64,000 nt of DNA from Candidatus Aldehydirespirator sp. (GCA_965203635.1 OZ241903.1:3047547-3111546); one strand, 5' to 3'; positions 7,002 through 22,050 are shown, counted from the stretch's first letter. A program made the numbers and translations. Notes: generated by a model from the letters alone, not told the origin.

Positions 7002-7075
7002 CGGGACGTGGCGCAGCCAGGTAGCGCACCTGCTTTGGGAGCAGGGGGTCGCCGGTTCAAATCCGGCCGTCCCGA
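7002..7075 (+). tRNA. tRNA-Pro (anticodon UGG)
   Basis: A hand-folded 74-nt cloverleaf fits. Acceptor stem is CGGGACG/CGTCCCG with discriminator A, and D arm is GCGC-AGCCAGGTA-GCGC. Anticodon arm is CCTGC-TTTGGGA-GCAGG (anticodon TGG), variable loop is GGGTC, and T arm is GCCGG-TTCAAAT-CCGGC. No encoded CCA. Confidence 0.9.
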
Positions 7076-7086
7076 CTCGTACCACC

Positions 7087-8625
7087 ATGAGCCAACTTCA
7101 CGAAGCCCAGCGCCGGGCCGATCCGATCAAGCGATATGTAGCGCCCGAGTCGTTGGAGGACGCCTTGGACGTGCTCGCGGCGCGCGGCCCCTCGGCCCGA
7201 GCGATCGCCGGCGGCACCGACCTGCTGCTGGAACTCAGCCGCGGCGCGAGGACCGGCATCGACACGCTCGTTGATCTGAGCGTGCTCGACGGGCTCGACA
7301 CCATCACCGAGCACCGCGGGCGGGTCGAGTTGGGGCCCCTGGTCACCCACGGCGACATAGTCGGGTGGGAGCGGATGCTGTCGGTCGGGCTCCCGCTCGC
7401 GCAGGCCTGCCTGGAGGTCGGGGGTCCGCAGCTTCGCAACCGGGCCACGATCGTCGGCAACATCGTCACGGCCAGCCCCGCCAACGACACCATCTCCGCG
7501 CTGTACGCGCTGGGTGCCGACGTGACCGTCTCGGCGGCCGGAGGCGGCCACCGGACCATGCCGATCGAGGACTTCTTCACCGGTTTCCGCACCACCGCGC
7601 TGGAGCCGGGCGAACTCGTGACCAGGATCTCCTTCGACGCGCTCGGCGGGGGCCGCCGGGGCGTCTTCGTGAAGCTCGGGCTGCGGAGGGCTCAGGCCAT
7701 CTCGGTGGTCCACGCGGCCGCGGTCGTCACCGAGGGCAGCGACGGAACCGTCGCCGACCTGGTGGTGGCCCTCGGCAGCGTCGGCCCGACCATCGAGCTG
7801 GTGGACGCGGCGGCCGGCATAGCCAGGGGCCGGCTCCTCAACGAGGCAGCCGCCGACGTCGCGGCCGCGTCCCGGGCTGCGGTCACACCCATCGACGACC
7901 TGCGCTCCACCGCCGAGTACCGCAGCCACACGGTCGAGGTGGTGGTGGAGCGGGCGCTGCGCTCCCTGGCCGCCGGCACTGAGGCCGCCACCTGGCCCCA
8001 GAGCCCGCCCCGCCTGGTCGTCGTCCCAGACTTCCCGGCACCATCAGCGCCCGAGGAGCCCTCCCGGCGGGAGATCAACAACTCCAGCACCATCACCGCC
8101 AGCATCAACGGCGTCGAGCGCCGCGCCGCCAACGCTGCGGGCCAGACGCTGCTGGACTGGCTGCGATTCGACCTCGGGCTGACCGGCACCAAGGAGGGCT
8201 GCGCCGAGGGCGAGTGCGGAGCCTGCACCGTCCACCTCGACGGCCGGGCCGTGTTGTCGTGCCTGGTGCCCGCCGCCCGCGCCGACGGCACGAGCATCAC
8301 AACAGTCGAGGGCCTGGCCCCGCCCGACGGGAGCCTGCACCCTGTCCAGCAGGCCCTGGCCGACTGCGGGGGCGTCCAGTGCGGCTTCTGCACCCCCGGG
8401 TTCGTGATGAGCGCGGCCATGCTGGCCGACGAGGAGCCCCACCCGAGCCGGGAACAGGTGGAGCACGGCCTGGCCGGGAACCTGTGCCGCTGCACCGGGT
8501 ACTACTCGATCATCGACGCCCTCGCGGGCAGCGGCGAGGAGGCCACACCGCGAATTGGCAGCCGGGAACACCCGAATCGGACTCCCCCGCTGCCAATTCC
8601 TTCCGGCGAGGCCGCGCTCGGATGA
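7087..8625 (+). CDS. xanthine dehydrogenase-family molybdoenzyme, fused FAD-binding and [2Fe-2S] subunit
   Basis: The N-terminal ~290 aa is a CO-dehydrogenase-flavoprotein-type FAD domain (IAGGTDLLLEL, RNRATIVGNIVTASPANDT, STAEYRSH). A P/S-rich linker follows. The C-terminal ~160 aa carries two Fe-S cluster motifs (GCAEGECGACTV, CGFCTPGF, NLCRCTGY). Confidence 0.85.
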   Translation: MSQLHEAQRRADPIKRYVAPESLEDALDVLAARGPSARAIAGGTDLLLELSRGARTGIDTLVDLSVLDGLDTITEHRGRVELGPLVTHGDIVGWERMLSVGLPLAQACLEVGGPQLRNRATIVGNIVTASPANDTISALYALGADVTVSAAGGGHRTMPIEDFFTGFRTTALEPGELVTRISFDALGGGRRGVFVKLGLRRAQAISVVHAAAVVTEGSDGTVADLVVALGSVGPTIELVDAAAGIARGRLLNEAAADVAAASRAAVTPIDDLRSTAEYRSHTVEVVVERALRSLAAGTEAATWPQSPPRLVVVPDFPAPSAPEEPSRREINNSSTITASINGVERRAANAAGQTLLDWLRFDLGLTGTKEGCAEGECGACTVHLDGRAVLSCLVPAARADGTSITTVEGLAPPDGSLHPVQQALADCGGVQCGFCTPGFVMSAAMLADEEPHPSREQVEHGLAGNLCRCTGYYSIIDALAGSGEEATPRIGSREHPNRTPPLPIPSGEAALG

Positions 8626-10862
8626 GCGTCGGCGCCTCCCCGGCCCGCATCGATGCGCCGGCCAAGCTCACCGGCGCGGCCGAGTACCCGAGCGACAGGA
8701 TCCCGCCCGACGCGCTGTGGGCCATGGCGGTGTTCACCGACCAGCCCCACGCCCGCCTGATCAGCCTCGACCTGGAGGCCGCTCGGGCCGTCGAGGGAGT
8801 GGTGGCGGTGTTCGGCTCGGCCGATGTGCCCGTCAACGAGTTCGGCCTCACCATGGCCGACCATCCCGTGTTCGTCGGCCTCGAGCACACGGGCCGCAGC
8901 CATCTGCCCTGCGACGTTTCCCGCTGGGAGGCGGACCGGCTGGCGCTGGTCGTGGCCGAGACGCCCGACGCGGCCCGGGCGGCGGCGGCCGCCATCGAGG
9001 CCCGGTGGGAGCCGTTGCCGGTGCTGGCCGACATCGACCAGTCGCTGTCGTCGGAGACGATGATCCACCCCGAGAACGGCGAGCCCTCCAACGCCTACTA
9101 CTCGCTGCGCATCCGCAAGGGGGACATGGACCGGGGCTGGGCCGACGCCGACGTGGTGGTGGAGTCGACCTACGAGTTCCCCTACCAGGAGCACGCCTAC
9201 CTGCAGCCCGAGGCGGGCATGGCCTACATCGACGGCGAGGGCCGGGTGACGGTGGAGGTCGCGGGCCAGTGGACGCACGAGGACCAGGAGCAGATCGCTC
9301 ACGCCCTCGACCTGCCGGCCGAGCGGGTCCGGGTGATCTACCCGGCTATCGGCGGCGCCTTCGGCGGCCGCGAGGACATTTCGGTCCAGATCGTGCTGGG
9401 TCTGGCCGCGATGGTGCTCCACGAGCGGGGCATCGATCGCCCGGTGGCCACCGTGTGGTCGCGCGAGGAGTCGATCGTCGGGCACGGCAAGCGCCACCGG
9501 GGCCGCATCACAGCCCGCTGGGGCGCCCGGCGCGACGGCCGCATCACCGCGGTGAGCAGCACGGCCTGGCTCGACGCGGGGGCCTACAACTTCACCTCCA
9601 ACAAGGTGCTGGGCAACTGCCACCTGCACCAGGCGGGGCCCTACGAGGTGCCCAACGCCGAGATCGACAGCGTCGCGGTGTACACCAACGCCACTCCGGC
9701 CGGCGCGTTCCGGGGCTTCGGCGCCCCCCAGGGCGCCTTCGCGGCCGAGAGCCAGATCAACAAGCTGGCTGAGGCGCTGGGTATGGACCCGGTGGAGATC
9801 CGCCGCGTCAACACCCTGCGCGAGGGCAGCGTCGGCATCACCCAGGCGGCCATGCCCGAGGGCGTGACCATGCCCGAGGTGATCGACCGCTGCGCCGAGG
9901 CCGCGGCGGAGCCCGCCTCCAACGGCGACGGCGCGGCCTTCAGCCCGTTCCCCTCGCTGCCGCCCGAGCCGTCGGCCCTTCGCCGGGGCCGGGGGTTCGC
10001 CTGCTCGTTCAAGAACGTCGGATTCTCGTTCGGCTTCCCGGAGCGGAGCGAGGCCGAGATCGTGCTCCACGGCGGCCACGATTCCGACGTGCCTGAATGG
10101 GCCGAGCTCTATCACGCCGGCGCGGAGGTGGGCCAGGGCGCCCACACGGCGCTGGTGCAGATGGCCGCCGAGGCCACCGGGCTTCCCGCGGACCGCATCG
10201 AGCACCGCTTCAGCGACACGGCTACCTCCGGCGACGCGGGCTCGGCGTCGGCGTCGAGGCTCACGTGGATGTCGGGCAACGCGATCCTGGGCGCGGCCGA
10301 GGAGGCCGAGAAGGCCTGGCGGGACGGCCAGCGCCCGGCTGCGGGCCGTTTCCGCTTCGTGCCTCCGCCCACGGAGACGCTCGACCCCGTCGACGGCCAC
10401 TGCGTCCCCAACTTCAGCTACGGCTACGTGGCCCAGCACGTTGAGCTCACGGTGGACACCGGAACGGGTCACATCCGCATCGACCGGGTGGTGAGCGCCC
10501 ACGACGTCGGGCGGGCCATCAACCCGGACCTGGTGGTGGGCCAGATCGAGGGTGCGGTCATCCAGGCCCACGGATACGCGCTGAGCGAGAACCTCCAATC
10601 GGACGGTGGCCGCCTGCAGAACATGCGCCTGAGCACCTACCTGATGCCCGGCATCGGCGACATCCCCACCACCGTCGACAGCGTGGTGCTGGAGCTGGCC
10701 GACCCGCTCGGACCGTGGGGCGCCCGGGGCATGGCCGAGATGGGCATGATCCCCTACGCCCCCGCGGTGACGGCCGCCCTCCACGACGCCACCGGCGTCT
10801 GGTTCGACAGCTTCCCCCTCACCCCCGACCGGGTCCTGGCCGGCCTAGCTGCGGCGCAATAG
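8622..10862 (+). CDS. xanthine dehydrogenase-family molybdopterin-binding large subunit
   Basis: ATG 8622 overlaps the upstream stop (ATGA). Motifs are AIGGAFGGREDIS, FRGFGAPQG and the C-terminal GARGMAEMG (catalytic-Glu region). The 8214 start in the ORF track lies inside the upstream gene. Confidence 0.85.
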   Translation: MSVGASPARIDAPAKLTGAAEYPSDRIPPDALWAMAVFTDQPHARLISLDLEAARAVEGVVAVFGSADVPVNEFGLTMADHPVFVGLEHTGRSHLPCDVSRWEADRLALVVAETPDAARAAAAAIEARWEPLPVLADIDQSLSSETMIHPENGEPSNAYYSLRIRKGDMDRGWADADVVVESTYEFPYQEHAYLQPEAGMAYIDGEGRVTVEVAGQWTHEDQEQIAHALDLPAERVRVIYPAIGGAFGGREDISVQIVLGLAAMVLHERGIDRPVATVWSREESIVGHGKRHRGRITARWGARRDGRITAVSSTAWLDAGAYNFTSNKVLGNCHLHQAGPYEVPNAEIDSVAVYTNATPAGAFRGFGAPQGAFAAESQINKLAEALGMDPVEIRRVNTLREGSVGITQAAMPEGVTMPEVIDRCAEAAAEPASNGDGAAFSPFPSLPPEPSALRRGRGFACSFKNVGFSFGFPERSEAEIVLHGGHDSDVPEWAELYHAGAEVGQGAHTALVQMAAEATGLPADRIEHRFSDTATSGDAGSASASRLTWMSGNAILGAAEEAEKAWRDGQRPAAGRFRFVPPPTETLDPVDGHCVPNFSYGYVAQHVELTVDTGTGHIRIDRVVSAHDVGRAINPDLVVGQIEGAVIQAHGYALSENLQSDGGRLQNMRLSTYLMPGIGDIPTTVDSVVLELADPLGPWGARGMAEMGMIPYAPAVTAALHDATGVWFDSFPLTPDRVLAGLAAAQ
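10572..10837. repeat. direct repeat copy 1 (native 3' end of the xdh large-subunit gene)
   Basis: Aligns without gaps at a constant offset of 1888 nt to 12460..12725, with about eight mismatches counted by eye, mostly third-codon positions. Confidence 0.9.
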
Positions 10863-11081
10863 CCGCGACCTTCATCGGCCCTCGAGGCCGTCCGCAGCCG
10901 CCGCATCCGGTCCCCGGCTCTCGGCCTGATACGAGGCCGCTTCGGCGTCGCTCAGACCGTCGAGTGCACCTCGAACGGACGACCACCACTCGTCGCGGCC
11001 GAGCCGGCGCACTGCGTCGATCACCACATCCACCATAGTTGTGCCCCGCTGCTTCGCAGTGGCGGCCGCAGCACAGTCGTC

Positions 11082-12383
11082 TCAGGGTGCTAGGGCGGTG
11101 AGAGGGGCTACTGCTACGCCGTCGGGGCGCTCGTAGGCGTATCCGCCGGCGGTGACGACGAGCAGTTTGGCCGGCTCGCCCGCCTTGTCGAGGTTCACCT
11201 TGTTGCGCAGCCGCAGCAGCGCGGCTGCGGCGTCGTCAGGGCCGCGGCCGCCCCCGAGCTTGATCTCGGCAGCGATCCATCGCCCGTCGGAGCGCTCCAG
11301 GATGGCGTCCACCTCCAGTCCGGTGTTGTCGCGGTAGTAGTGGATCCGAGCGTCGTTGGCGTCGGCGTACACCCGCAGGTCGCGCACGGCCAGCGCCTCG
11401 AACAGCGCGCCGAAGCCTCTCGGGTCGGCCATGAGCCGGGCCCGGTTGGACCGCAGCGCCGCCACCGCCAGCGAGGGGTCCACGAGATAGCGCTTCGGGG
11501 TGACCGCGATGTGGGCCCGGGACCGCAGGTCCGCGGGCCACGGCGTGAGATGCTCCAGAACGAACAACTGCTCCAGGGCCGACAGATAGGCGGCCACCGT
11601 CCTGGGGTCCGCGGGGCGAATGGTGTCCATGTCGGACGCGAGGACCCGCCGCGAGGCGCTGGTGGCGATGTTGCGGGCCAGCGACTCCAACAGCCGGGCC
11701 ACACCCGCCGGGTCGCGGCGGGCCCGGTCCACGTACTCGATGTCGGCCTTGCAGAGGTCGGACAGGTAGTCGCGCAGCAGCTGCTGGGCACCCGCGCCGT
11801 CGGCGTCCAACAGCGCGGGCCAGCCGCCCCGGCACACCAGCTCGTAGATGTCGGGCTCGTCGCCGGCCGCGGGCGCCGACACCTCCTCGGAGTCGAACAG
11901 GTCCCCCAGCGACACCGCCCCCGACGACTCCTCAGACTCGAGTAGCGTCATGGGCCGCATCCGCACCCTGCGCACCCGCCCGGCCCCGGTGTGGCGGGTG
12001 TGGCTGTCGGGCGGCACCGCCGAGCCGGTCAGGATGAACTGTCCCGGCAGTCCCAGCTCGTCGCAGGCCCGCCGCATCGGGTTCCAGATGCCCGGCGACA
12101 GGTGGTACTCGTCTATGAGCCGAGGCCGCTCGCCCTCCAGCAGCAGCCGCCTCGCCATGGCCGAGGTGACGGCGGCCGACTCCTCGGCGTCGATCAGCAC
12201 CGCGCTGCGGGCGGCGCTGCCGCCGGTCCACGTCTTGCCGCAAGCGCGCGGCCCCTCGATCAGCACCGCCGGCGCCACTCTGAGAGCCCGCTGAAGCAGC
12301 CCGTCCGCGATCCGGGGCCGGTACCGCCCACGGATCGTCTCCAGCAGCGGATGCTCGCGCAGACTGCTCTCCACCACGTCCAA
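11082..12383 (-). CDS. AAA+ ATPase with C-terminal DUF4143 / PD-(D/E)xK-like domain
   Basis: 433 aa. P-loop LIEGPRACGKTW. The C-terminal GLEVDAILERSDGRWIAAEIKLGG fits a D...E-x-K nuclease-fold motif, as in the AAA_14+DUF4143 architecture. The gene is high GC. Confidence 0.8.
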   Translation of the reverse strand: MDVVESSLREHPLLETIRGRYRPRIADGLLQRALRVAPAVLIEGPRACGKTWTGGSAARSAVLIDAEESAAVTSAMARRLLLEGERPRLIDEYHLSPGIWNPMRRACDELGLPGQFILTGSAVPPDSHTRHTGAGRVRRVRMRPMTLLESEESSGAVSLGDLFDSEEVSAPAAGDEPDIYELVCRGGWPALLDADGAGAQQLLRDYLSDLCKADIEYVDRARRDPAGVARLLESLARNIATSASRRVLASDMDTIRPADPRTVAAYLSALEQLFVLEHLTPWPADLRSRAHIAVTPKRYLVDPSLAVAALRSNRARLMADPRGFGALFEALAVRDLRVYADANDARIHYYRDNTGLEVDAILERSDGRWIAAEIKLGGGRGPDDAAAALLRLRNKVNLDKAGEPAKLLVVTAGGYAYERPDGVAVAPLTALAP

Positions 12384-12397
12384 TGTATCAGATCAAA

Positions 12398-12425
12398 GCC
12401 ATCCAATGCATCAATATTGGATGGC
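12398..12425. repeat. perfect 10-bp inverted repeat GCCATCCAAT-N8-ATTGGATGGC
   Basis: Read directly from the sequence. It lies in an AT-rich patch 15 nt upstream of the ATPase start (12383) and about 35 nt before repeat copy 2. It could be an operator or a recombination site. Confidence 0.5.
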
Positions 12426-12459
12426 GCGATGCATGAATGTACACTTGACTCTCTATCTT

Positions 12460-12725
12460 GGCTACGCGCTCAGCGAGAACCTCCAATCAGACGGTGGCCG
12501 CCTGCAGAACATGCGCCTGAGCACCTACCTGATGCCCGGCATCGGCGACATCCCCACCACCGTCGACAGCGTCGTGCTGGAGCTGGCCGACCCGCTCGGC
12601 CCCTGGGGCGCCCGGGGCATGGCCGAGATGGGCATGATCCCCTACGCCCCCGCGGTGACGGCCGCCCTTCACGACGCCACCGGCGTCTGGTTCGACAGCT
12701 TCCCCCTCGCCCCCGACCGGGTCCT
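12460..12725. repeat. direct repeat copy 2 (duplicated xdh 3' end)
   Basis: See copy 1. It encodes GYALSENLQSDGGRLQNMRLSTYLMPGIGDIPTTVDSVVLELADPLGPWGARGMAEMGMIPYAPAVTAALHDATGVWFDSFPLAPDRVL, almost identical to the C-terminus of the intact xdh product. Confidence 0.9.
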
Positions 12726-12771
12726 TCGAGGGCTCTACGACTCCGCATCGCAACAGCCCGAATCCCCATGA
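12460..12771 (+). pseudogene. orphan 3' fragment of an xdh large-subunit gene
   Basis: It covers only the last ~90 codons of the ~746-codon gene, with a divergent tail (LRGLYDSASQQPESP). The upstream part of ORF 12406..12771 (MHQYWMARCMNVHLTLYL) is AT-rich junction sequence, not xdh. Confidence 0.7.
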
Positions 12772-12994
12772 CATTCCGCGATCCAGCGATTATCAACTCA
12801 CCCCCAGCCACAGCTTCTAGGCGACCAAAGCGACCCCTATCAGGACACCCTTCACCACGAATTCCCGAACTCCCATTGGAGCCAGCCCGCCGCGGTACTA
12901 TGTCACAGCCAGCGCGTGCCCATCGATCTTCGGATCGAAGAGGCGCTAGTTGGGGGCCTAACCGTCCTTCGATCACCAGAGAATCCAATACGCG

Positions 12995-14509
12995 ATGTTC
13001 TCCTTCTACAGATCGACTTTCAAGGCGTACTTGACGGTCGTCAAGGCTTCCAGTCGAGTTCTCCAAAGCGCAATCAACAACGCACGCTTTCAACATCCGC
13101 GATCGGGCGCAGCCCCTATCGTCCTAGGACCGTCACACAGCGCTCCAGCTCCGAATTCCTCAAGCCGAAACGTCTGGGACTATCGAGGGGTCGCAGCGCC
13201 GAGGGATATCAACCCTCACGAGGTCGATTTTCCACTGGGCAGGTATCGAGAGCCCAAACGTTGGAAAGCAACGGCTCCCATAGGTGTATCTCGTCGCATT
13301 GCGAACCATCACACGGCTGTCTTCGGGCCAACGCGTTCTGGAAAGACCATGTCAATCATCGTTCCTTGGATATATCACGCTCTGAAGCAAGGGTTTACAG
13401 TACTGGCTATCGATGTTAAGGGAAATGATGATCTACTCAGCGCTGTCCGTCAGTATGCCAAGCATTGCGGACCATTGAACATACCGTCATTCAAGTGGGA
13501 CTACACGGACGCCGCCAATTCCTTTTCCTGGAATTGGATACGAGATGCCATTACTCCCGGAGAAATCAATAGCGCCATAGATGCCATATGTGGTATGCCC
13601 TCACCTAACGATCCAAATCAGTTCTTCCATGATTGTGCTACCCGATATTTGCGATCTCTTCTAGAACTCTCAGCTGTCATTCCCCACTCGTTGTCAGCAC
13701 AAGATCTCTTCGTTCTGGTGAACGACCAAGAAAAGATGATTCCTCTTGTTCACGCCTACCAGGGCCATAGAGCATCGGCTGCTCTCCTCGAGCTAACGCG
13801 TCTCGATCCGACAGATTATGCCAATCGAGTTGCAGTGCTCGTCAACCATTTGACTCCATTGATCGCGACTGAGTTCTTAAGCGTGACGACGAACGACAGC
13901 CAGAATATCACCATAGACTGGCTCTGGAGTACCGATCCGAAGTTAACCATTGTAACCGCTCCATTAGCAGATGGAAAGTTAGCCACATCCGCTTCGGCAC
14001 TATTCTTGGGACAATTTCTCCAAAATGTGAAGGCACGCTTGGGTACTGGATCCGCAAACAGGCCAGTCCTGTTGGTGCTCGATGAGGCACCGCGACTACA
14101 AGATAGAATAGACCTCGGTGCGATCCTCTCGACAGTCGCCCAAGCAAACGTGAGCGTATTGCTAGCATTACAGGATGTGTCGCAACTCAGTGATACTGTA
14201 AGAGATGAGATCTTGTCGAACTGCGCCACGAAGATCTGCCTTCCAAGGGTCTCTGAAGCGACGACCCGCTACTTCACTAGCCAATTGGGGGAAATCTATC
14301 TTGATTCAAAGTCGGTGAACACCGGCGACAGTAGCCGTACGGTTCGGTCAAGTTCCTGGACTCATACTACTGAACTACGGCCGGTTTTGAGCCACCGTGA
14401 AATCGCTCATCCGCCGACCCGATTTGGAAATTGGACGGGAACAGTGCATTCTCCAGATCTATCACATGCACCGATAGTTACAGATCTGACGAGAACGGAT
14501 CTGTTATGA
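12995..14509 (+). CDS. soluble type IV coupling protein-like (TraD/TraG/VirD4 family) P-loop ATPase
   Basis: 504 aa. Walker A HHTAVFGPTRSGKT, Walker B PVLLVLDEAPRL. Downstream T4CP-like blocks are AQANVSVLLALQDVSQLSD and ILSNCATKICLPRVSEATTRYFTSQLGE. No N-terminal transmembrane helices are evident. Start is uncertain. Confidence 0.7.
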   Translation: MFSFYRSTFKAYLTVVKASSRVLQSAINNARFQHPRSGAAPIVLGPSHSAPAPNSSSRNVWDYRGVAAPRDINPHEVDFPLGRYREPKRWKATAPIGVSRRIANHHTAVFGPTRSGKTMSIIVPWIYHALKQGFTVLAIDVKGNDDLLSAVRQYAKHCGPLNIPSFKWDYTDAANSFSWNWIRDAITPGEINSAIDAICGMPSPNDPNQFFHDCATRYLRSLLELSAVIPHSLSAQDLFVLVNDQEKMIPLVHAYQGHRASAALLELTRLDPTDYANRVAVLVNHLTPLIATEFLSVTTNDSQNITIDWLWSTDPKLTIVTAPLADGKLATSASALFLGQFLQNVKARLGTGSANRPVLLVLDEAPRLQDRIDLGAILSTVAQANVSVLLALQDVSQLSDTVRDEILSNCATKICLPRVSEATTRYFTSQLGEIYLDSKSVNTGDSSRTVRSSSWTHTTELRPVLSHREIAHPPTRFGNWTGTVHSPDLSHAPIVTDLTRTDLL

Positions 14510-14546
14510 TATGTGCCCCCTAGTCAGGCCGACCTAAGTCACTTCA

Positions 14547-16886
14547 TTATGTCGTGTCTGTTGACAGCAGTCCTTCGATTGTGGAAATCGGGAATCCCAA
14601 CGCAAGCAAGGCCGCTACCGGATCTTCGACATCGGCAGGAATCTCGACAGAAAGTTGCAACGGACTCGTAAAGAGCACATACACTGTCTCGCCCGATCCA
14701 ACGAGGCAGATCTCATCTTCCCCGCACGATATCCATCCCGGAGCAATGAATGCCGCCCCTAGGTATGCGATGACGGCTGGCCTAACTGAATCATGGCGAT
14801 CCTTCGGCCATACACGAGTCGCATCAAAAAATGATGGCTTAGCGTCGCGCAGTGAACCATCTGGTGACCATCTTGCGTGCATATCTTGGAAGTCACTGTC
14901 TGTCTCTTGGCGCAGATTTGAACCGTCTGCAGCGAGAGTAAAGATCTCCGAATCCCCATCGTGCACGCTGCTGTAGCTGATCCGTCCGCCATCAGGCAGC
15001 CACGTTGGGAAGAAGTCTCGTATTTCATTGTGAGTCAGTTGCTCGAGAGAAGAGCCGTCGCTATCGATCAGAAAGATCTCAGAATCCCCATCTCTATCGC
15101 TCTCGAAGACCAGGCGAGAGCCATCCGGTGAGAACTGGGCATTGCTGTCGGAGCTATCGTTGTGGGTCAACTGTCGGAGATTGCGGCCATACAGATCCAT
15201 GATAAAGAGTTCAAAATCACCATCGCGATCACTGTAGAACGCAAAGTCTACGCCATTCGGCGACCAAGATGTAGGTATATCAGTCGATTCACTATTAGTT
15301 AGACGGCGTTGGAACCTCCCCTCGGGATCGGAAACATATATCTCAAGCTGTCCGTCCCGATTGCTTGAGAATAGTATCAGATTGCTGGAATATGACCATA
15401 CAGGGAAGATGTCACTAAACTCATTAGTCGTAAGTTGATGCATCGTCAAACCGTCTACATTTCTTACAAAAATCTCCAAGTCGCCATCCGTAGAGCTTGC
15501 ATATGCAATGCGCTCTGCGTCCGGAGCCCATGTTGGCCACAACTCGTCATCCGATTCCCCCGACAAAACCCTTTCAGTTCCACGGTCGAGATTCCTTACG
15601 ACGATACGCGGGTGTTCTTCCCGCCAGGATATGTAGGCCATCTGTCGATCTGGGAAGGTGGAGACATTCGACTGCGGCACCTCCGCCTCTCCATCTGCGC
15701 CTTCTGCGCTCAACATGCCGGAAGGCGTCTCTGGCAGCGGCGCCGGCGCCTCGCCTACGATAGATCGCGACGTTGTCTCATCTCCGTCTTGCCCAAGCAG
15801 TCCGGCAATGATGAGCAGTATCACTGCGAGCACGCCAGCCGCGACCAGCCATCGGGGGGCCCGCCTTGACCGGGAAGGTCCAGGTCTTACCCCACCGGCG
15901 AGCTGGCCGATACGAGCGACGGCCGCCGGCTGTCCAGTCCCATGCGTCCCAACCACTGGTCGTGTCCCATAAACAGGAGCGACACGCAACTGCCCCGGGG
16001 CCTTAGTCGAGGCCTTCGCCTTTGCTCTCCGTACGGGCGAAAGCCATTCCGTCGGTTGAGGACGATCCGTCTGGTCGGGCGACAGGCTCCGTTCGATGAG
16101 CCTCTGGATTTCGGACGGGACGCGACCGCGAACCCGCGATGCATCTCTCGAGGCCTGTTCTCCTGCAAAGAGACGGAGCGCTACAAGGCCCAACTTGTAG
16201 ACATCCGTATACCGGGTGCCGAGTTTCTCTCGTGGAAACACTGCCTCGATAGACCAGTCCGGTGTCTCGTTCTGGGATTCGACACCCCGACCCTCCAACG
16301 CCATGGAATCACAGTCAATCAAGTAGACACGTGACCTTGGCACAAACGAAAACAGCAGATTGCGTGCCGAAAGATCTCCCACAACAATACCACGAGAGTG
16401 CATCCACTCTAGGGATTCTCCCAACTTCTCGATGACTTCATATCGTTGACGGTCGCTTACCCGTAGTCCGATACGGTTCAGATACTCTGGCGGCTTCAGG
16501 AGTAGTTGCAAATCACCAATGTGCTCCATCGGTTGTCCTGAAATGCCCCGCAGTGTCAAGAAGAAGGGTCGAGGAACCTTCGGCATAATAAACCCCGACA
16601 GCATGCCTCCCCGTTCTACTAACTGACAGGGCCAAGCAGCGAAATTCAGAAGCGTTTCCCTATCTTCAATGCTCAGCTCTGAAAAATACTGCTGTCTCGC
16701 TTCCAGTGCTTCAATATCGCCGGTCGATGGGCGCTGTGTGTAGTGCTTATAGACCGTCTCCGCAGTGAAACCGCCTGTATCCAGCTCAATCAAGCCACCC
16801 GGTGCTTCGTAGACCGTCCCCTCTCCGCCGCTTGCGATGACCTTTAGCCCATCCAAATCGAGACTAGTAGCATCTAGACGCGACAC
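14547..16886 (-). CDS. membrane Ser/Thr protein kinase with extracytoplasmic PD40/TolB-like beta-propeller (TerY-P kinase component)
   Basis: 779 aa. Glycine loop ASGGEGTVY, catalytic loop VVGDLSARNLL, DFG-equivalent LIDCDS. One TM helix WLVAAGVLAVILLIIAGLLG (about nt 15792-15851). Then 5-6 repeats of the type WSPDG/WAPDA..I.F.S.RDGD.EI. (about nt 14850-15640). Confidence 0.85.
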   Translation of the reverse strand: MSRLDATSLDLDGLKVIASGGEGTVYEAPGGLIELDTGGFTAETVYKHYTQRPSTGDIEALEARQQYFSELSIEDRETLLNFAAWPCQLVERGGMLSGFIMPKVPRPFFLTLRGISGQPMEHIGDLQLLLKPPEYLNRIGLRVSDRQRYEVIEKLGESLEWMHSRGIVVGDLSARNLLFSFVPRSRVYLIDCDSMALEGRGVESQNETPDWSIEAVFPREKLGTRYTDVYKLGLVALRLFAGEQASRDASRVRGRVPSEIQRLIERSLSPDQTDRPQPTEWLSPVRRAKAKASTKAPGQLRVAPVYGTRPVVGTHGTGQPAAVARIGQLAGGVRPGPSRSRRAPRWLVAAGVLAVILLIIAGLLGQDGDETTSRSIVGEAPAPLPETPSGMLSAEGADGEAEVPQSNVSTFPDRQMAYISWREEHPRIVVRNLDRGTERVLSGESDDELWPTWAPDAERIAYASSTDGDLEIFVRNVDGLTMHQLTTNEFSDIFPVWSYSSNLILFSSNRDGQLEIYVSDPEGRFQRRLTNSESTDIPTSWSPNGVDFAFYSDRDGDFELFIMDLYGRNLRQLTHNDSSDSNAQFSPDGSRLVFESDRDGDSEIFLIDSDGSSLEQLTHNEIRDFFPTWLPDGGRISYSSVHDGDSEIFTLAADGSNLRQETDSDFQDMHARWSPDGSLRDAKPSFFDATRVWPKDRHDSVRPAVIAYLGAAFIAPGWISCGEDEICLVGSGETVYVLFTSPLQLSVEIPADVEDPVAALLALGFPISTIEGLLSTDTT

Positions 16887-16994
16887 ATGCGCCCCATTCC
16901 TATTACTGTACCTGCTTCAGCACGCACACCATCGAAGCTAGCAACCAGTTCAGACTCCACGCTACCGATCAATTGGGCGCTTCCGCATCCGAGA

Positions 16995-18164
16995 TCATCC
17001 CCAAGTAATCGACCATTGGTTCACTTCCAAGTACCCGAGAATAGCCGCAGCGATTAATACTCCAACGATACCCGCCAAGACGATGCCAGTAAAGAGCCAA
17101 GGCCATCGACGCTTCCGCCTTGATGGCTGTCGCCTATCAGTCATGTCATCGGTGATTTCAACCTCGGCGCAAGTTTCTGCCGCCTCCAGACTCTCAGTTA
17201 TGCTCTTCGAGCTGGCGCTTACCTGAGTCAGATTCATATCACTGCAAGCGCCATCATCTGACGCATTTAGCCACACCGCGACCAGCGTCCGGTCGTCATC
17301 ATATGTGTCTCTTGAGAAGTCAAGCTTATGGGCGAATTCGTATATCGAGGGAACTCGATCCATTAGCGTCTCTGCAAACAGTCGCCCGACCTCGCCACTA
17401 CCATCGCCGAGAGGATCCCCGAATCCATCCGTTCCTAGAAGGAGAGCACTCCGACGATTCAACGTTATCTTGGAAACACTAGGCACTTTTGGAACACGTG
17501 GCAATGGAATCACACTAGACATGATGACGCCCTGGAGCGTATCTGGTACGTGTCCTACAATCGCTGCAATATTGTCACCGTCAAGAATCCAGGCACCAGA
17601 ATCCCCGACGCTGACGACTTCAACTACAGCAGTCCTATCCTCTTGAGCGTCGATGACTGCACATATGAGCGTCGTAGCAAGGAGCGACTCGGCACTCTCA
17701 GCATCCTCGGTGCCAAAAACATCAGTCGCCTTCTGGATCATCCCCCACGCGATTTGTTCAATGATGTTCGCCCAATCAATGCAGTCCAGGTCTTCGACCT
17801 CTCGCCCCATCACATGAACTGCATATTGAACTGCTGTCGTGCTTCCTACATGCGACTGAGGAGATTGCGATACACCATCGGCCACAGCTACCAGAAGACG
17901 GCTACCGCCATTATGCACTGTGATAGCAAAATCATCCTGTCGCGGTGTCCCAAAGTATCGGTGGGCATGTCCTCTTAGGGATGCAGCCCTAATCACAAAA
18001 TGGTCATTTTCCCATCCATCGAGAACGGAATCAGCGCGATACGGGTATGGGTGGAAGCGTTCCTCAACGGCACGGGGTTCAATGGAGGGGCCGGGATTGC
18101 CAATCACTACGGGTTCTGACGAAAGCCACTGTCTGGGTTTTGGCACGACGAAATCCTTACCCAA
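16995..18164 (-). CDS. PP2C-family protein phosphatase with C-terminal membrane anchor (TerY-P phosphatase component)
   Basis: 389 aa with TTG start after GGGGAG. PP2C blocks are LLVAVADGVSQS, VVSVGDSGAWIL, LLLGTDGFGDPL and DDRTLVAVWL. The C-terminal hydrophobic helix is WPWLFTGIVLAGIVGVLIAAAILGYL. Confidence 0.8.
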   Translation of the reverse strand: MGKDFVVPKPRQWLSSEPVVIGNPGPSIEPRAVEERFHPYPYRADSVLDGWENDHFVIRAASLRGHAHRYFGTPRQDDFAITVHNGGSRLLVAVADGVSQSPQSHVGSTTAVQYAVHVMGREVEDLDCIDWANIIEQIAWGMIQKATDVFGTEDAESAESLLATTLICAVIDAQEDRTAVVEVVSVGDSGAWILDGDNIAAIVGHVPDTLQGVIMSSVIPLPRVPKVPSVSKITLNRRSALLLGTDGFGDPLGDGSGEVGRLFAETLMDRVPSIYEFAHKLDFSRDTYDDDRTLVAVWLNASDDGACSDMNLTQVSASSKSITESLEAAETCAEVEITDDMTDRRQPSRRKRRWPWLFTGIVLAGIVGVLIAAAILGYLEVNQWSITWG

Positions 18165-18235
18165 GCGGGAGTGACTCCCCTCAAATGAGGGTCAAAGCCG
18201 ACGATATTGCGAGCGTGTCGTGGTCTTTACTGAAT

Positions 18236-18922
18236 CTATACTAGGCCCGTGTCAATCGGGATGAATCCAGTCGGCTCCTTTAGCAGAATATCCGTATTTC
18301 CTTTCTCTGCGGCACGAGCCGATACTATGATCGTATGCGTCAGAATTTCAATAAACTCGGTTATAGCGGCGGCCGGATCCATCTGCTCAGATGCTGTCCA
18401 GGCGTATTTCGTTCCGTCCGGTGCTTCAGTCGCTACATGCTCGATCACGGCTGGAACTGCGTCTCCGAACCCAAACGCGAAGATGTTCGGTCGTGCGCGC
18501 AGGTCGTTGAGCCGATCAAGAATCGACTCCCACCGATCACCAGTATTAGGTTGACCATCAGAAAGAAAGAACACGGCGGGACGAAACACAGCAAATCCGC
18601 CGTCGTTTAGGCGCTTCACATGGTCAGGTATCCTCGATTCAAGCGACTCAAATGCGGCAGCGTAGGACGTAGAGTTTCGGGCATGCAGCTTGGGAACATG
18701 TTCCAAGTCACTGACGTCCTCCAACTCCAGATGCCAGATCCCATCATTGGAAAAGCCAAGCACCGACAAGCGCGCCTTGGAACTGGCAAACGGTTCTAGT
18801 CGTATCTTCTCAATGAGATCTTCTAAGGCACTATTGAGGCGATCTATCACTGCTGACATCGAATAGGACTCGTCTATCACGATATATATTGGAAGCACAC
18901 GTGCTTGCTCTTCATTCGTCAA
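18236..18922 (-). CDS. TerY-like von Willebrand factor A domain protein (TerY-P vWA component)
   Basis: 228 aa. MIDAS motif in IYIVIDESYSMS, with FLSDGQPNTG and IFAFGFGD blocks typical of TerY-type vWA proteins. It is first in a co-directional vWA-PP2C-kinase series. Confidence 0.8.
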   Translation of the reverse strand: MTNEEQARVLPIYIVIDESYSMSAVIDRLNSALEDLIEKIRLEPFASSKARLSVLGFSNDGIWHLELEDVSDLEHVPKLHARNSTSYAAAFESLESRIPDHVKRLNDGGFAVFRPAVFFLSDGQPNTGDRWESILDRLNDLRARPNIFAFGFGDAVPAVIEHVATEAPDGTKYAWTASEQMDPAAAITEFIEILTHTIIVSARAAEKGNTDILLKEPTGFIPIDTGLV

Positions 18923-19021
18923 CTCAGCAATCCTTTCACGTCGAACCGTCCCAGCTATCTATCAGACTACATGATCTTCCCAAGCACATGCAATGGAGTG
19001 GGCCGTGCTCGTCGACAGCCC

Positions 19022-19279
19022 TTACGGCTTGTGGCGATACTTCGGAGGGTCGGGCTTCTTGCCGCGTAGAATCAGCCTTCCCCTTTCGGTCAACTCAGGA
19101 GGCGGGGGGCGACCGGTAACAAACTGTTTGGCCGCTTCCTTGAGATTCTGCTTGAAAGTTGGTCGCCTGACGACCCCCAAGTCCACAGCCGCGTTGTATT
19201 CCTCAGTCGACAGTTTGCCATCCGCCGCCCTCTGTGCCAGATAGGTCTCCTCGGGCGACACTTCGTTGCTATGCGACAT
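19022..19279 (-). CDS. hypothetical small basic protein
   Basis: 85-aa ATG ORF upstream of, and co-directional with, the vWA gene, with island-like composition. No recognisable motif. Confidence 0.4.
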   Translation of the reverse strand: MSHSNEVSPEETYLAQRAADGKLSTEEYNAAVDLGVVRRPTFKQNLKEAAKQFVTGRPPPPELTERGRLILRGKKPDPPKYRHKP

Positions 19280-19420
19280 GCTCTTCGCTCTCTGCCTTGA
19301 CGGATCCTCTGGGTTGTCTCCGAGGATACCTCCTCTATGGCTTGTTGGCGGCGAATGCAGTGACTCCGAGCCGACTCCGAGCCATCTGCAACGTCAATCA
19401 GCGGGTGCCTGCGCCGTCGA

Positions 19421-19996
19421 CTAGTTGTTCTGGGGCCAGGTGGCGGTTAGGCGTTCCCAGCAGTCTTGGAGGCTCTGGGGGAGGACTCTCACATCGGCTA
19501 TGGCGGTCATGAAGTTGGTGTCGGAGCGCCAGCGGGGAAGCACGTGGATGTGGACGTGGTCGAACACGCTGGGGCCGGCGCCCTCGCCCAGGTTGACGCC
19601 TACGTTCACCCCGTCGGGCGAGAAGGCGGCCTTCACCGCGGTGACGGCGTCGTGGACGGTGTCCCACAGCTCGCGGCGCTCGTCCGGGTCGAGGCCCTCA
19701 AGGTCGGGAACAGCCCGGTAGGGCAGGATCAGCAGGTGGCCCGTGGAGTACGGGTAGCGGTTCAGGATGGCGAACACCCGCTCGCCGCGGTGCACGATGT
19801 GTGTCTTGTCGTCGGGCAGGCCCGAGTTGAGGATGGCCTCGAAGAGGCTCTGGCCGTGCCCGCCGTCGGGGCCGGTGCCGGCTCCGGGGACGGTGCCCGG
19901 AATGGTGCCGGAAGAGTCCGCGATCCCGGCGGCGGCCGCCTCCCGGTCCTCCATCATGGCGGGGATCCGCCAGCCGGCCCAGAGGCGCTCGACCAT
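19421..19996 (-). CDS. HIT-family nucleotide hydrolase/phosphorylase (Ap4A-phosphorylase-like)
   Basis: Histidine triad HVHIHVLPRW. The N-terminal ERLWAGWRIPAM motif and the position directly downstream of thrS match the arrangement I recall for mycobacterial Rv2613c/thrS. Confidence 0.85.
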   Translation of the reverse strand: MVERLWAGWRIPAMMEDREAAAAGIADSSGTIPGTVPGAGTGPDGGHGQSLFEAILNSGLPDDKTHIVHRGERVFAILNRYPYSTGHLLILPYRAVPDLEGLDPDERRELWDTVHDAVTAVKAAFSPDGVNVGVNLGEGAGPSVFDHVHIHVLPRWRSDTNFMTAIADVRVLPQSLQDCWERLTATWPQNN

Positions 19997-20061: not shown

Positions 20062-22050
20062 TCAGCTCCGGGCCTCGACCTCGGCTGCCAGGCGGGCCGC
20101 GAAGGCTTCCAGCGGCACGTCGCGCTCGGGCTTCTTCGTGCCGCGGGCGTTGACCCCGACCGTGCCGCCGGCGACGTCGTCGTCTCCCACCACCAGTACG
20201 TAGGGGACCTTGGCCACCTTGGCGTTGCGGACCCGCTTGCCCAGGGGCTCCTCCGCCGGGCTGGTCTCCACCCTGAAGCCGTGGGAACGCAGGGTCCCGG
20301 CCACCTCGATGGCGTAGTCGGCGTGAGCCGCGGCCACCGGGAGCACTGCGGCCTGCACCGGCGCCAGCCAGGCCGGGAACGCGCCCGCATAGTGCTCGAC
20401 CAGCAAGCCGAAGAAGCGCTCCACCGCACCGAACAGCGCTCGATGGATCATCACGGGACGAGGTCGGGAGCCGTCAGCGGCCACATACTCCAGCCCGAAA
20501 CGCTCGGGCAGGTTGAAGTCGAGCTGGATGGTCGACAGCTGCCACGACCGGCCGATGGCGTCGCGCACGTCGACGTCGATCTTGGGGCCGTAGAAGGCGC
20601 CGGCTCCCTCGTCGATCTTGTAGGCGAGCCCGTTGGTGTCCAGCGCGGCGCGCAGCCCGGCGGTGGCCTCGTCCCACAGCGCCGGCTCCCCCACGGACTT
20701 TTCCGCGGGGCGGGTGGAGAGCTTGGCCACGAAGTCCGTGAAACCGAAGGCCCGAAGCACGCTCAACACGAACTCGAGCAGCGAGGCCAACTCCGCGGCG
20801 ATGTCGTCGCGGGTGCAGAAGATGTGGCTGTCGTCCTGGGTGAATCCCCGGCTGCGGAGCAGGCCGTGCACCGCGCCCGACAGCTCGTAGCGGTAGACCG
20901 TCCCCAACTCGAACAGCCGCATGGGCAGGTCCCGGTAGCTGCGCTGCGACGACCGGTAGATCATCACGTGGAACGGGCAGTTCATCGGCTTGGGGTAGTA
21001 GTTGGTGCCGTCGACCTCCATGGGCGGGTACATGCTCTCGGCGTAGAAGTCGAGGTGCCCGGAGGTCTCCCACAGCACCGACTTGGCGATGTGGGGCGAG
21101 AACACAGACTCGTAGCCGCCTTCGGCGTGGCGCTGGCGGGAGTAGTCCTCCATGAGCGTGCGCACCAGGGCGCCCTTGGGATGCCACACCGCCAGTCCCG
21201 GTCCCAGCTCGGTGGGCCACGACACCAGGTCGAGCTCGGCAGCGAGCCGCCGGTGGTCGCGCCGCTCGGCCTCGGCCAGGCGGTGCAGGTGGGCTTTGAG
21301 GTCTTTGCGGGTGGCCCAGGCGGTGCCGTAGATGCGCTGCAGCATGGGGTTGCGCTCGCTGCCCCGCCAGTAGGCCCCGCTGACCCGCTGCAGGGCGAAG
21401 TGTCCCAGCCGCCCGGTCGAGGGGACGTGGGGTCCCAGGCACAGGTCCACGAATCCGGCCGGGTCGCCGTTGCCGGCGTCGTTGCGGTAGCAGCTGACGC
21501 TGCCGCCCCCCGACACCTCCGAGGCGAGGTCGCCGTCGGCGCCCGCGCCCATGGCCACCGCCTCGATGATGGCCCGCTTGTAGGGGTGCTCCGCGAAGAG
21601 CTCCAAGGCGTCCTCGGCCGCCATCTCGACCCGCCGGAACGGCTGGTCGGCGTCGATGATCTCCCGCATCCGGCCCTCGATGCGCTCCAGGTCGGCGTCG
21701 GTGAAGGTGCCTCCGTCGGGCAGCTCGAAGTCGTAGTAGAAGCCGTGCTCGATGGGCGGCCCGATCGCGAAGGTGGCCCCCGGGTAGAGGTCCAGCACCG
21801 CCTGGGCCAGCACGTGCGCGGTGGAGTGGCGGATGGTGTGCAGCCCCCGGTCCGTCGACGCGGTCACGATCTCCACCGACTCCCCGTCGGCCAGCGGAGC
21901 GACCAGGTCTCTCTCATCGCCGTCCACCACCGCCACCACGGCGTCGGCGGCCAGCCGGGGGCCGATGTCGGCGGCCAGATCGGCCGCGCTGGCACCCTCG
22001 GCCAGCTCACGCTCCGAGCCGTCGGGCAGCGACACCGAGATGACAGACAT
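20062..22050 (-). CDS. thrS: threonine--tRNA ligase
   Basis: 662 aa. It has an N-terminal TGS-like segment (ISVSLPDGSERELAEG), the editing-domain motif HSTAHVLAQAV, class II core motifs (FRRVEM..., YRYELSGAVHGLLRSRGFTQDDSHIF, GAFYGPKID) and a C-terminal anticodon-binding domain. Confidence 0.95.
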   Translation of the reverse strand: MSVISVSLPDGSERELAEGASAADLAADIGPRLAADAVVAVVDGDERDLVAPLADGESVEIVTASTDRGLHTIRHSTAHVLAQAVLDLYPGATFAIGPPIEHGFYYDFELPDGGTFTDADLERIEGRMREIIDADQPFRRVEMAAEDALELFAEHPYKRAIIEAVAMGAGADGDLASEVSGGGSVSCYRNDAGNGDPAGFVDLCLGPHVPSTGRLGHFALQRVSGAYWRGSERNPMLQRIYGTAWATRKDLKAHLHRLAEAERRDHRRLAAELDLVSWPTELGPGLAVWHPKGALVRTLMEDYSRQRHAEGGYESVFSPHIAKSVLWETSGHLDFYAESMYPPMEVDGTNYYPKPMNCPFHVMIYRSSQRSYRDLPMRLFELGTVYRYELSGAVHGLLRSRGFTQDDSHIFCTRDDIAAELASLLEFVLSVLRAFGFTDFVAKLSTRPAEKSVGEPALWDEATAGLRAALDTNGLAYKIDEGAGAFYGPKIDVDVRDAIGRSWQLSTIQLDFNLPERFGLEYVAADGSRPRPVMIHRALFGAVERFFGLLVEHYAGAFPAWLAPVQAAVLPVAAAHADYAIEVAGTLRSHGFRVETSPAEEPLGKRVRNAKVAKVPYVLVVGDDDVAGGTVGVNARGTKKPERDVPLEAFAARLAAEVEARS

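Follow-up and report, generated by a model that had tools for sequence, protein, structure and literature searches.

In Escherichia coli, phage 21 and e14 are integrated in icd, a gene for which the prophage supplies an alternative 3' end, and an icd pseudogene is left at the far end. Chromosomal integration hotspots and defence islands, located between core genes, are turned over by flanking homologous recombination. Besides, C-terminal displacement has reportedly been described in Rhs loci (Jackson et al. 2009), and the same is said of homology-facilitated illegitimate recombination as a process (de Vries & Wackernagel 2002; Prudhomme et al. 2002). The present work is centred on a stretch of 64,000 nt (called the window, at its full length) from Candidatus Aldehydirespirator sp., Acidimicrobiales (GCA_965203635.1 OZ241903.1:3047547-3111546), in which the 3' end of a molybdopterin-subunit gene of the xdh family is present twice, on both sides of a gene encoding a DUF4143 AAA-ATPase. 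With a probability of roughly 0.55, this repeat is the scar of a second allele of an integration hotspot, added by homology-anchored integration, either through Campbell-type or through one-ended recombination plus end joining; the most likely route is the cell's own recombination, without a dedicated mobile-element enzyme. Homology-facilitated illegitimate recombination is also the explanation given for the orphaned 3' ends of Rhs and type VI secretion system (T6SS) effector-immunity arrays (Kirchberger et al. 2017, PMC5361080).

The genome searched is one contig of 3,536,242 bp with 69% GC, which includes the window as 3047547-3111546. It is referred to as G000, whereas other G and L numbers stand for relatives' genomes and loci. 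The features on which the argument depends are these:

8619..10862, plus strand: intact molybdopterin subunit of the xdh family, 747 codons, the target gene (Pfam Ald_Xan_dh_C, MoCoBD_1, MoCoBD_2)
10572..10837, plus strand: repeat copy 1, formed by the final 266 nt of the conserved xdh body, codons 652-740 (repeat search, MAFFT, blastn)
10838..10876, plus strand: tail 1, AGLAAAQ and stop, with a remnant of about 14 nt of the mazF 5' end (the whole stretch is common to the full-length xdh of G011)
10881..11054, minus strand: mazE-like antitoxin remnant, 58 codons, residues 28-85 of 87 (tblastn, 84% to the MazE of G011)
11082..12383, minus strand: ATPase-nuclease gene with AAA_14 and DUF4143 (PD-(D/E)xK) domains, candidate defence family PDC-S01 (Pfam, PADLOC)
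12384..12459, minus strand: AT-rich region upstream of the DUF4143 gene, at the 5' border of its cassette, with a palindrome and ATGCAT motifs (sequence)
12460..12725, plus strand: repeat copy 2, orphan xdh 3' fragment, codons 652-740 (repeat search, MAFFT, junction reading)
12726..12771, plus strand: tail 2, that of the orphan, RGLYDSASQQPESP and stop (weak likeness to natural xdh tails, e.g. that of G017)
12772..19431, no strand: low-GC TerY-P-like island, about 51% against about 72% (composition, Pfam)
19421..19996, minus strand: HIT-family gene, the right core flank (Pfam HIT; homology to relatives resumes at 19432)

The two copies, 10572-10837 and 12460-12725, form a direct repeat of 266 nt that aligns without gaps, with 8 mismatches and 97% identity (MAFFT, and a repeat search of 9000-14500 in which one strong repeat family was found). 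Their starts are 1888 nt apart, and identity collapses outside both edges. In the whole genome there are two copies at E 1e-125 whereas the next-best matches reach E 1e-4 (blastn), so that the repeat is far beyond chance. A previous sequence-only reading of this DNA had already described a gapless repeat with about eight mostly synonymous mismatches, and the alignment bears it out: seven of the eight are synonymous changes at third codon positions and the other one is T735A. The same reading was also correct in assigning copy 1 to an intact xdh gene, here of 747 codons, and copy 2 to an orphan with a different tail, as AGLAAAQ and stop of the intact gene are replaced in the orphan by the longer RGLYDSASQQPESP and stop. 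The segment GARGMAEMG, which it had pointed out in the orphan, is present in both copies; its Glu is taken by us to be the catalytic residue, from what is known of the XDH/CoxL family. Between the copies there are 1622 nt that hold the DUF4143/AAA_14 gene and the mazE-like remnant, which has no N-terminus and has lost its mazF partner; intact mazEF pairs are found in G011 and G047. Directly after copy 2 the G+C content drops from about 72% to about 51%, a level that lasts to about 19.3 kb, and the orphan is placed exactly between the DUF4143 block and the low-GC TerY-P-like island.

Both ends resemble those of natural xdh genes in related lineages. The length of tail 1 is canonical for the xdh tails of the genus (for example AGLQAAR and stop in G005, AGLQAAALG and stop in the orphan of G011), and its core GCTGCGGCGC is also part of that G011 orphan tail. 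Besides, tail 1 and the mazF remnant recur with the full-length xdh of G011, where their divergence is that of alleles, from which it follows that allele 1, as it is named below, descends from an xdh-mazFE arrangement and circulates among lineages. In the case of tail 2, blastn homology to the xdh tail of G017 reaches 12745. The drop in identity at the tails is abrupt, from 97% to about 36%. Orthologues of the molybdopterin subunit are encoded in 24 genomes of the same genus, with 84-97% amino acid identity, and both repeat copies are 95-96.7% identical to the xdh genes of the near clade. Seven third-position differences out of eight correspond to P ~0.003 under random placement; between full gene and orphan the share is 10/11 in G011 and 5/7 in G047, which makes 22 of 26 substitutions when the three genomes are pooled. 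This bias in three genomes shows that the copies diverged as parts of working xdh genes in different lineages, and that they are alleles brought together recently.

The import of copy 1 was also considered, since this copy differs from G008 at 3 positions and copy 2 at 9, and was withdrawn when more relatives showed the copies to be equally distant from the near clade and G008 alone to stand out. Related to this, the last ~340 nt of xdh (10509-10846) have 3 mismatches to G008, compared with about 4% divergence in the remaining gene, which suggests that the two lineages have recently exchanged this end by homologous recombination, in either direction.

In the genus, xdh and HIT are convergent, and the site between them is empty at 14 loci, where the gap is 18-41 bp. 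The closest relatives, G008, G016 and G018, have a gap of about 34 bp, and are homologous to the window up to 10846 and again from 19432 onwards; consequently, 8.6 kb (10847-19431) have been inserted in the window, and the xdh duplication must be read within this composite island at a hotspot. Four other loci have gaps of 120-180 bp, and at least 10 loci gaps of 0.75 to more than 10 kb. The cargo differs at every occupied site (MazEF, Phd/HicB-like antitoxins, an HTH protein, HEPN/MNT, DUF222-HNH, an IS110 fragment, SLH proteins, an AAA_16 ATPase), which makes the xdh-HIT site a hotspot for accessory genes, largely of defence or toxin-antitoxin (TA) type.

Orphan pieces of xdh are found in six genomes, G000 included. 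The order in G011 is xdh, 2.3 kb of other DNA, a HIT fragment fused to an xdh fragment, mazF and mazE followed by further DNA, and HIT; the HIT fragment has 503 bp with 99.4% identity to the full HIT gene, and the xdh fragment, of 336 bp and 95.5% identity, starts at window position 10530. In G047 the order is xdh, a TA module, an xdh fragment (from 10566, with an internal deletion), DUF4143, mazF and mazE, and HIT. Shorter xdh remnants lie within the islands of G024 (59 bp), G049 (32 bp) and G013 (163 bp). As in known defence-island hotspots, core genes enclose highly variable cargo in which defence and TA genes abound, and the site is empty in many lineages; however, a clean flank-to-flank exchange leaves no duplicated flank, whereas tandem alleles and orphan flank pieces are present here in six genomes.

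Two further observations concern the flanks of the hotspot. On a metagenome contig (Ga0209021_1002869, L055; 1394-1503 of the reverse complement) an orphan of the HIT 3' end, of 111 bp, lies between a DUF4143 cassette and the full HIT gene, which indicates that the right flank is displaced like the left one. In G013 (L026/L142) the xdh molybdopterin-subunit gene contains an in-frame insertion of about 500 bp between codons 425 and 429, giving one frame of 980 aa, and a separate xdh orphan (codons 603-660) is located 3.7 kb downstream of xdh.

At the left edge of copy 2 in the assembly (12459/12460), the AT-rich region upstream of the DUF4143 gene meets xdh codon 652, with GG as the only shared bases. 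The corresponding joint in G047 connects the stop codon of a toxin gene to xdh position 10566, and that of G011 connects HIT codon 23 to position 10530, with 0-1 nt shared. The left breakpoints of the three orphans are therefore 10530, 10566 and 10572. The element-side junction sequences of the three genomes are unrelated, and neither a fixed crossover core nor a conserved element-side arm is found among the insertions; the three joints are illegitimate ones and no attachment-site cores. Domains of integrases, serine recombinases, resolvases or transposases are absent from the open reading frames (ORFs) of at least 50 aa between 10.8 and 19.4 kb (Pfam). A genome-wide scan with PF00589 only, serine recombinases not included, gave 3 matches to tyrosine recombinases, the nearest more than 400 kb away. 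As for transposon features, the region contains no transposase, the repeat search of 9000-14500 gave no terminal inverted repeats, and the duplications around DUF4143 genes vary in length. A fixed-length target-site duplication had been considered and was rejected: copy 1 continues as genuine xdh up to 10846, where the homology of the relatives' xdh genes also ends, and has a canonical tail, so that the insert does not start at 10838. The sole tRNA, tRNA-Pro at 7002-7076, lies outside the insert and provides no attachment site for it; there are no Rfam matches in 10-20 kb, and no third copy of the repeat, such as would mark the far end of the low-GC island, exists in the genome.

The sequence-only reading had seen in the repeat the footprint of an element that integrates into the 3' end of a gene and supplies a replacement end. 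An insertion footprint at the xdh 3' end is indeed what the intact gene and the empty sites indicate, but a site-specific element does not agree with the lack of a recombinase and with variable junctions of 0-2 nt microhomology, and the supply of a replacement end by the element is one of two possible polarities. It was likewise right about the absence of a recombinase in the bracketed 1.6 kb (Pfam) and wrong about the ATPase gene being the sole content, as the mazE-like remnant had been missed. Of the checks that it proposed, the search for relatives lacking the insertion gave the 14 empty loci, and the alignment aimed at the ancestral 3' end gave empty sites together with two natural-looking ends of similar closeness to the near clade. 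Taken as a whole, the locus is an insertion footprint, with an additional xdh end and with empty sites in relatives, but no self-contained integrating element.

According to the favoured explanation, the xdh-HIT interval would be a recombination hotspot through which related Ca. Aldehydirespirator lineages acquire, exchange and lose accessory modules, mostly of defence or TA type. Allele 1 would consist of an xdh end (copy 1, tail 1), the mazF/mazE remnant and the DUF4143 cassette, and allele 2 would start at xdh codon 652 with copy 2 and tail 2 and continue through the low-GC TerY-P-like island to HIT; the two alleles would stand in tandem, with the 266-bp xdh end as their overlap. DNA from a related lineage, with its own xdh 3' end as flanking homology, would have been added and the resident DNA not replaced. 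Two routes could lead to this arrangement: a) a fragment running from inside xdh to just before HIT would be circularised by end joining and would enter by one RecA crossover within the homologous part of xdh (Campbell type), in which case the insert would be the 1888-bp unit 10572-12459, the circle joint would be 12459/12460, and the joint between the HIT and xdh fragments of G011 would be the circle joint of a fragment including part of HIT; b) one-ended homologous invasion from a break would copy the donor DNA to its end, and the far end would be sealed by illegitimate or Ku-dependent end joining, that is, by homology-facilitated illegitimate recombination. The DUF4143 block would have arrived last by route a), whereas route b) would allow either order. 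Ku is encoded in the genome, which makes the end-joining step plausible, and the DUF4143 gene would be cargo instead of agent.

There are also points that weigh against this explanation. A homology of 266 bp should favour clean two-sided replacement, and additive outcomes are expected to be rare, yet they recur here. The eight differences are evenly spread and neither copy is chimeric in a test for mid-repeat crossover, so that a Campbell-type crossover must sit at the extreme edge of the homology. Besides, three independent orphans have their left edges no more than 42 bp apart, near xdh codons 638-652; such clustering is not expected from host recombination alone and may point to a site at which breaks occur preferentially. 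Finally, the excess of repeats around DUF4143 genes, described below, is explained by passive cargo only via a recent exchange of these genes.

Under the same explanation, the xdh locus is an instance of a known process, additive and homology-anchored gene-end displacement at a defence-island hotspot. As in Rhs and T6SS displacement, a conserved 5' body carries a new 3' end and the old end is kept downstream as an orphan; the orphans correspond to alleles that work in other strains, a recombinase is lacking, and one homologous anchor is combined with one illegitimate joint. In agreement with this, a retained 3' end is located downstream of the working end (also in G011 and G047), the ends are allelic and the junction is illegitimate. 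Unlike the polymorphic toxins of those systems, xdh is a metabolic enzyme whose two ends encode nearly the same protein, with no new end function; the gain is the cargo beyond the gene (DUF4143 and the TerY-P-like island), and fragments of HIT on the opposite flank have been orphaned too.

Such an addition leaves xdh intact and preserves the two defence modules. Recombination by the host between the 266-bp direct repeats could later excise the DUF4143 block as a loop. At the level of sequence, the locus would illustrate the growth of defence islands in uncultured Ca. Aldehydirespirator without a mobile-element enzyme: new modules would bring along part of the adjacent core gene and be stacked onto earlier ones, leaving orphan ends as datable scars, which could be used for ordering acquisitions and for finding hotspots in metagenome-assembled genomes (MAGs).

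Outside the window, the genome contains three further pairs of direct repeats of 102-185 bp, with 96-97% identity, that bracket segments of 6-9 kb (coordinates on contig C1 of G000):

2821320-2821504 / 2828734-2828917
1406526-1406648 / 1412490-1412612
825248-825349 / 833938-834039

In one of these pairs the repeat corresponds to the 3' end of a short-chain dehydrogenase gene, and the segment in between holds genes for a 1941-aa adhesin and for Uma2 (PD-(D/E)xK), with no DUF4143. Another pair encloses HipA and an OpuAC fusion beside a Uma2 gene, and metabolic genes are also present between the repeats of these two other pairs; a host origin has been traced for the dehydrogenase pair alone. At least one other island of this genome, and perhaps three, are thus bracketed with no DUF4143 gene inside, which makes this type of scar a general one.

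The protein encoded by the bracketed gene matches Pfam DUF4143 (2.3e-32) and AAA_14 (2.3e-9), as well as PADLOC PDC-S01 (1.3e-61). It follows the layout of PDC-S01/COG1373, in which an AAA_14 P-loop domain precedes a DUF4143 PD-(D/E)xK domain, and the motifs read from its sequence are intact (Walker A GPRACGKT, Walker B LIDEYH, and D...EIK). The assignment of DUF4143 to the PD-(D/E)XK family is taken from the literature (Steczkiewicz et al. 2012, PMC3424549). Sequence search gave no solved-structure homologue of this protein, look-up gave no record of the exact DUF4143 and HIT proteins in other assemblies, and literature search found neither a description of function or mobility for the PDC-S01/COG1373 family nor a paper with anti-phage experiments on candidate PDC-S01. 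Upstream of the gene, a palindrome (CCATCCAAT..ATTGGATGG, at about 12399-12424) belongs to the portion that is conserved in the G024 orthologue, whose cassette is homologous up to 12439. Orthologues with 87-92% amino acid identity are found at this hotspot only, placed beside xdh (G000, G003), beside HIT (metagenome contigs L055, L056) or in the middle of the island (G024, G047).

A survey of DUF4143 genes for flanking duplications of host DNA, which the sequence-only reading had advised, gave a positive result. In the genus there are up to 18 genes of this family per genome, about 50% identical to each other, and direct repeats bracketing them within 4 kb were searched. No bracketing repeats were found at the 8 other paralogues of this genome, and in G047, G024 and G052 there are 2-3 bracketed genes out of 20 (L035, L037), the repeat of L035 being the 3' end of a host gene with downstream DNA, ~330 bp. 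Among the metagenome loci, 7 of about 31 distinct ones are bracketed (L064, L065, L069, L079, L080, L085, L092), by repeats of 35-193 bp that are 83-97% identical. In total, 9-10 of about 60 paralogue loci have high-identity bracketing repeats, whereas 21 of 400 random 1.25-kb windows of this genome are bracketed, about 10 of the 400 by short high-identity repeats; the enrichment around DUF4143 genes is real. The duplications, from 35 to ~330 bp long, are unrelated between loci and thus derived from the host. In four loci the downstream repeat copy starts 1-36 bp past the stop codon. The site of L064 is empty in five relatives, and the insert is exactly the cassette (106 bp upstream, the ORF and 9 bp) with a duplication of 58-67 bp; in the same comparison for L065, the flanking gene has no match in the genus. 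In different genomes, cassettes with 80-96% identity have their homology confined to the stretch between about 100-220 bp upstream and 1-19 bp beyond the stop codon, and their flanks are unrelated. COG1373/PDC-S01 is a very abundant candidate defence family that would come as a compact cassette, unusually often flanked by duplicated host DNA. The DUF4143 gene of the window shares its domains and its hidden Markov model match with this family, while the host duplications and the iterated motifs described next are absent from the family description.

In L056-L095, the AT-rich regions upstream of DUF4143 genes contain 2-5 iterated motifs of 16-20 bp that differ by subfamily, such as ACTGCCACTTTATTGGC, three times in L074, or AATAATGTAGGATAG, five times in L082. 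Their counterpart in the window is the palindrome near 12399-12424. They look like autoregulatory operators, or like iterons for a DNA-binding part of the protein itself.

These data raise the question of whether the DUF4143 cassette is itself a mobile unit lacking a recombinase, whose nuclease-ATPase makes or exploits breaks into which host homologous recombination or non-homologous end joining captures the cassette, with a target duplication of variable length (35-330 bp); the xdh repeat would then be one of its footprints. The family is multi-copy, its Walker and PD-(D/E)xK motifs are intact, 9-10 of about 60 loci are bracketed against about 10 of 400 random windows, and L064 offers a clean insert with an empty site. 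Tight cassette boundaries between unrelated flanks, downstream repeats at 1-36 bp past the stop codon in four loci, and the contact between copy 2 and the AT-rich 5' edge of the DUF4143 cassette agree with it as well. However, paralogues that are about 50% identical do not indicate recent bursts within a genome, the 8 others in this genome have no bracketing repeat, and the xdh unit also holds the mazE remnant and a genuine xdh tail, so that the insert is not the cassette alone. The same scar exists in G011 with no DUF4143 gene at the site, and the other bracketed islands of the genome are devoid of DUF4143. Moreover, selection and deletion bias in shuffled defence islands can give tight module boundaries, and any recently exchanged island gene is expected near such scars. 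For these reasons the cassette is a doubtful agent of the xdh repeat. It is equally unlikely, though conceivable, that the AT-rich region with its iterated motifs, the AAA/PD-(D/E)xK gene and ~10 bp form an undescribed discrete unit that moves between unrelated sites, beside or into gene ends; if the bracketing were mechanistic, it would represent a new mode of gene mobility.

The locus resembles that of phage 21 and e14 in icd in its intact target, in direct repeats that are the 3' end of the gene, in mostly synonymous differences and in an orphan across the insert, and an integrase-dependent element of that type could have brought a replacement xdh 3' end if its integrase had been deleted later or acted in trans. 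Empty sites in relatives and orphan left edges clustered at 10530-10572 would fit such an element. Nevertheless, phage 21 and e14 have a tyrosine integrase and a fixed core, whereas the xdh locus has no integrase and variable breakpoints, 6-42 bp apart: the 10.8-19.4 kb region is free of recombinase and transposase domains, none of the 3 PF00589 matches is near, the junction sequences of G000, G047 and G011 share nothing, and the cargo of the site is different in every genome, all of which makes the proposal very unlikely. An assembly artefact, in which two strain alleles of the hotspot were wrongly put in series, has a very small probability. The genome is probably metagenome-assembled, every record of a relative is a MAG (in several cases of a single contig), and the structure is that of two allelic hotspot versions in tandem, with a difference of about 3% that is typical between strains or species; but the two sides of 12459/12460 have no sequence in common that could have led an overlap or graph assembler from one path to another, similar scars occur in independent assemblies including short-read contigs (L055, L064), and degraded scars, such as the internal deletion of G047 and the remnants of 59 and 32 bp, are not the product of a mis-join. 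The least probable of all, with hardly any weight, is a tandem duplication of the xdh end within this genome followed by decay of the orphan: C at 10709 in both copies, where the nearest relatives have G, is what such a duplication would leave, but seven synonymous third-position changes out of eight are unlike neutral decay, the tail changes abruptly from 97% to about 36% identity, and the nearest relatives, about 3-4% diverged, have an empty site.

The remaining features of the region, within the low-GC island and on both sides of the hotspot, are the following:

7087..8625, plus strand: fused FAD and 2Fe-2S subunit of the xdh family, partner upstream of the molybdopterin subunit (Pfam FAD_binding_5, CO_deh_flav_C, Fer2, Fer2_2)
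12995-14509, plus strand: T4CP-like ATPase (Pfam)
14547-16886, minus strand: kinase with PD40 propeller (Pfam)
16995-18164, minus strand: PP2C phosphatase (Pfam)
18236-18922, minus strand: vWA protein (Pfam)
20062..22050, minus strand: threonyl-tRNA synthetase (thrS), core gene adjoining HIT in all relatives (Pfam, synteny)

In the PADLOC library the PP2C and vWA proteins of the island have no match, and the T4CP-like ATPase and the kinase/PD40 protein weakly match other families. Relatives of the T4CP-like gene are present in 2 of 400 other genomes of the order and are distant (28-37% identity), and a search for the island in metagenomes via the T4CP-like protein returned nothing. On the right side, the last three codons and the stop codon of HIT (19421-19432) differ from those of all empty-site relatives, the protein ending in PGPQNN instead of PGPAD; because homology resumes at 19432, these three codons are derived from the island, whose right edge lies inside the extreme 3' end of HIT. 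Farther downstream, at 31500-63200, the window contains a giant minus-strand gene made of about 25-32 near-identical units of ~1.25 kb with sub-repeats of 288 bp.

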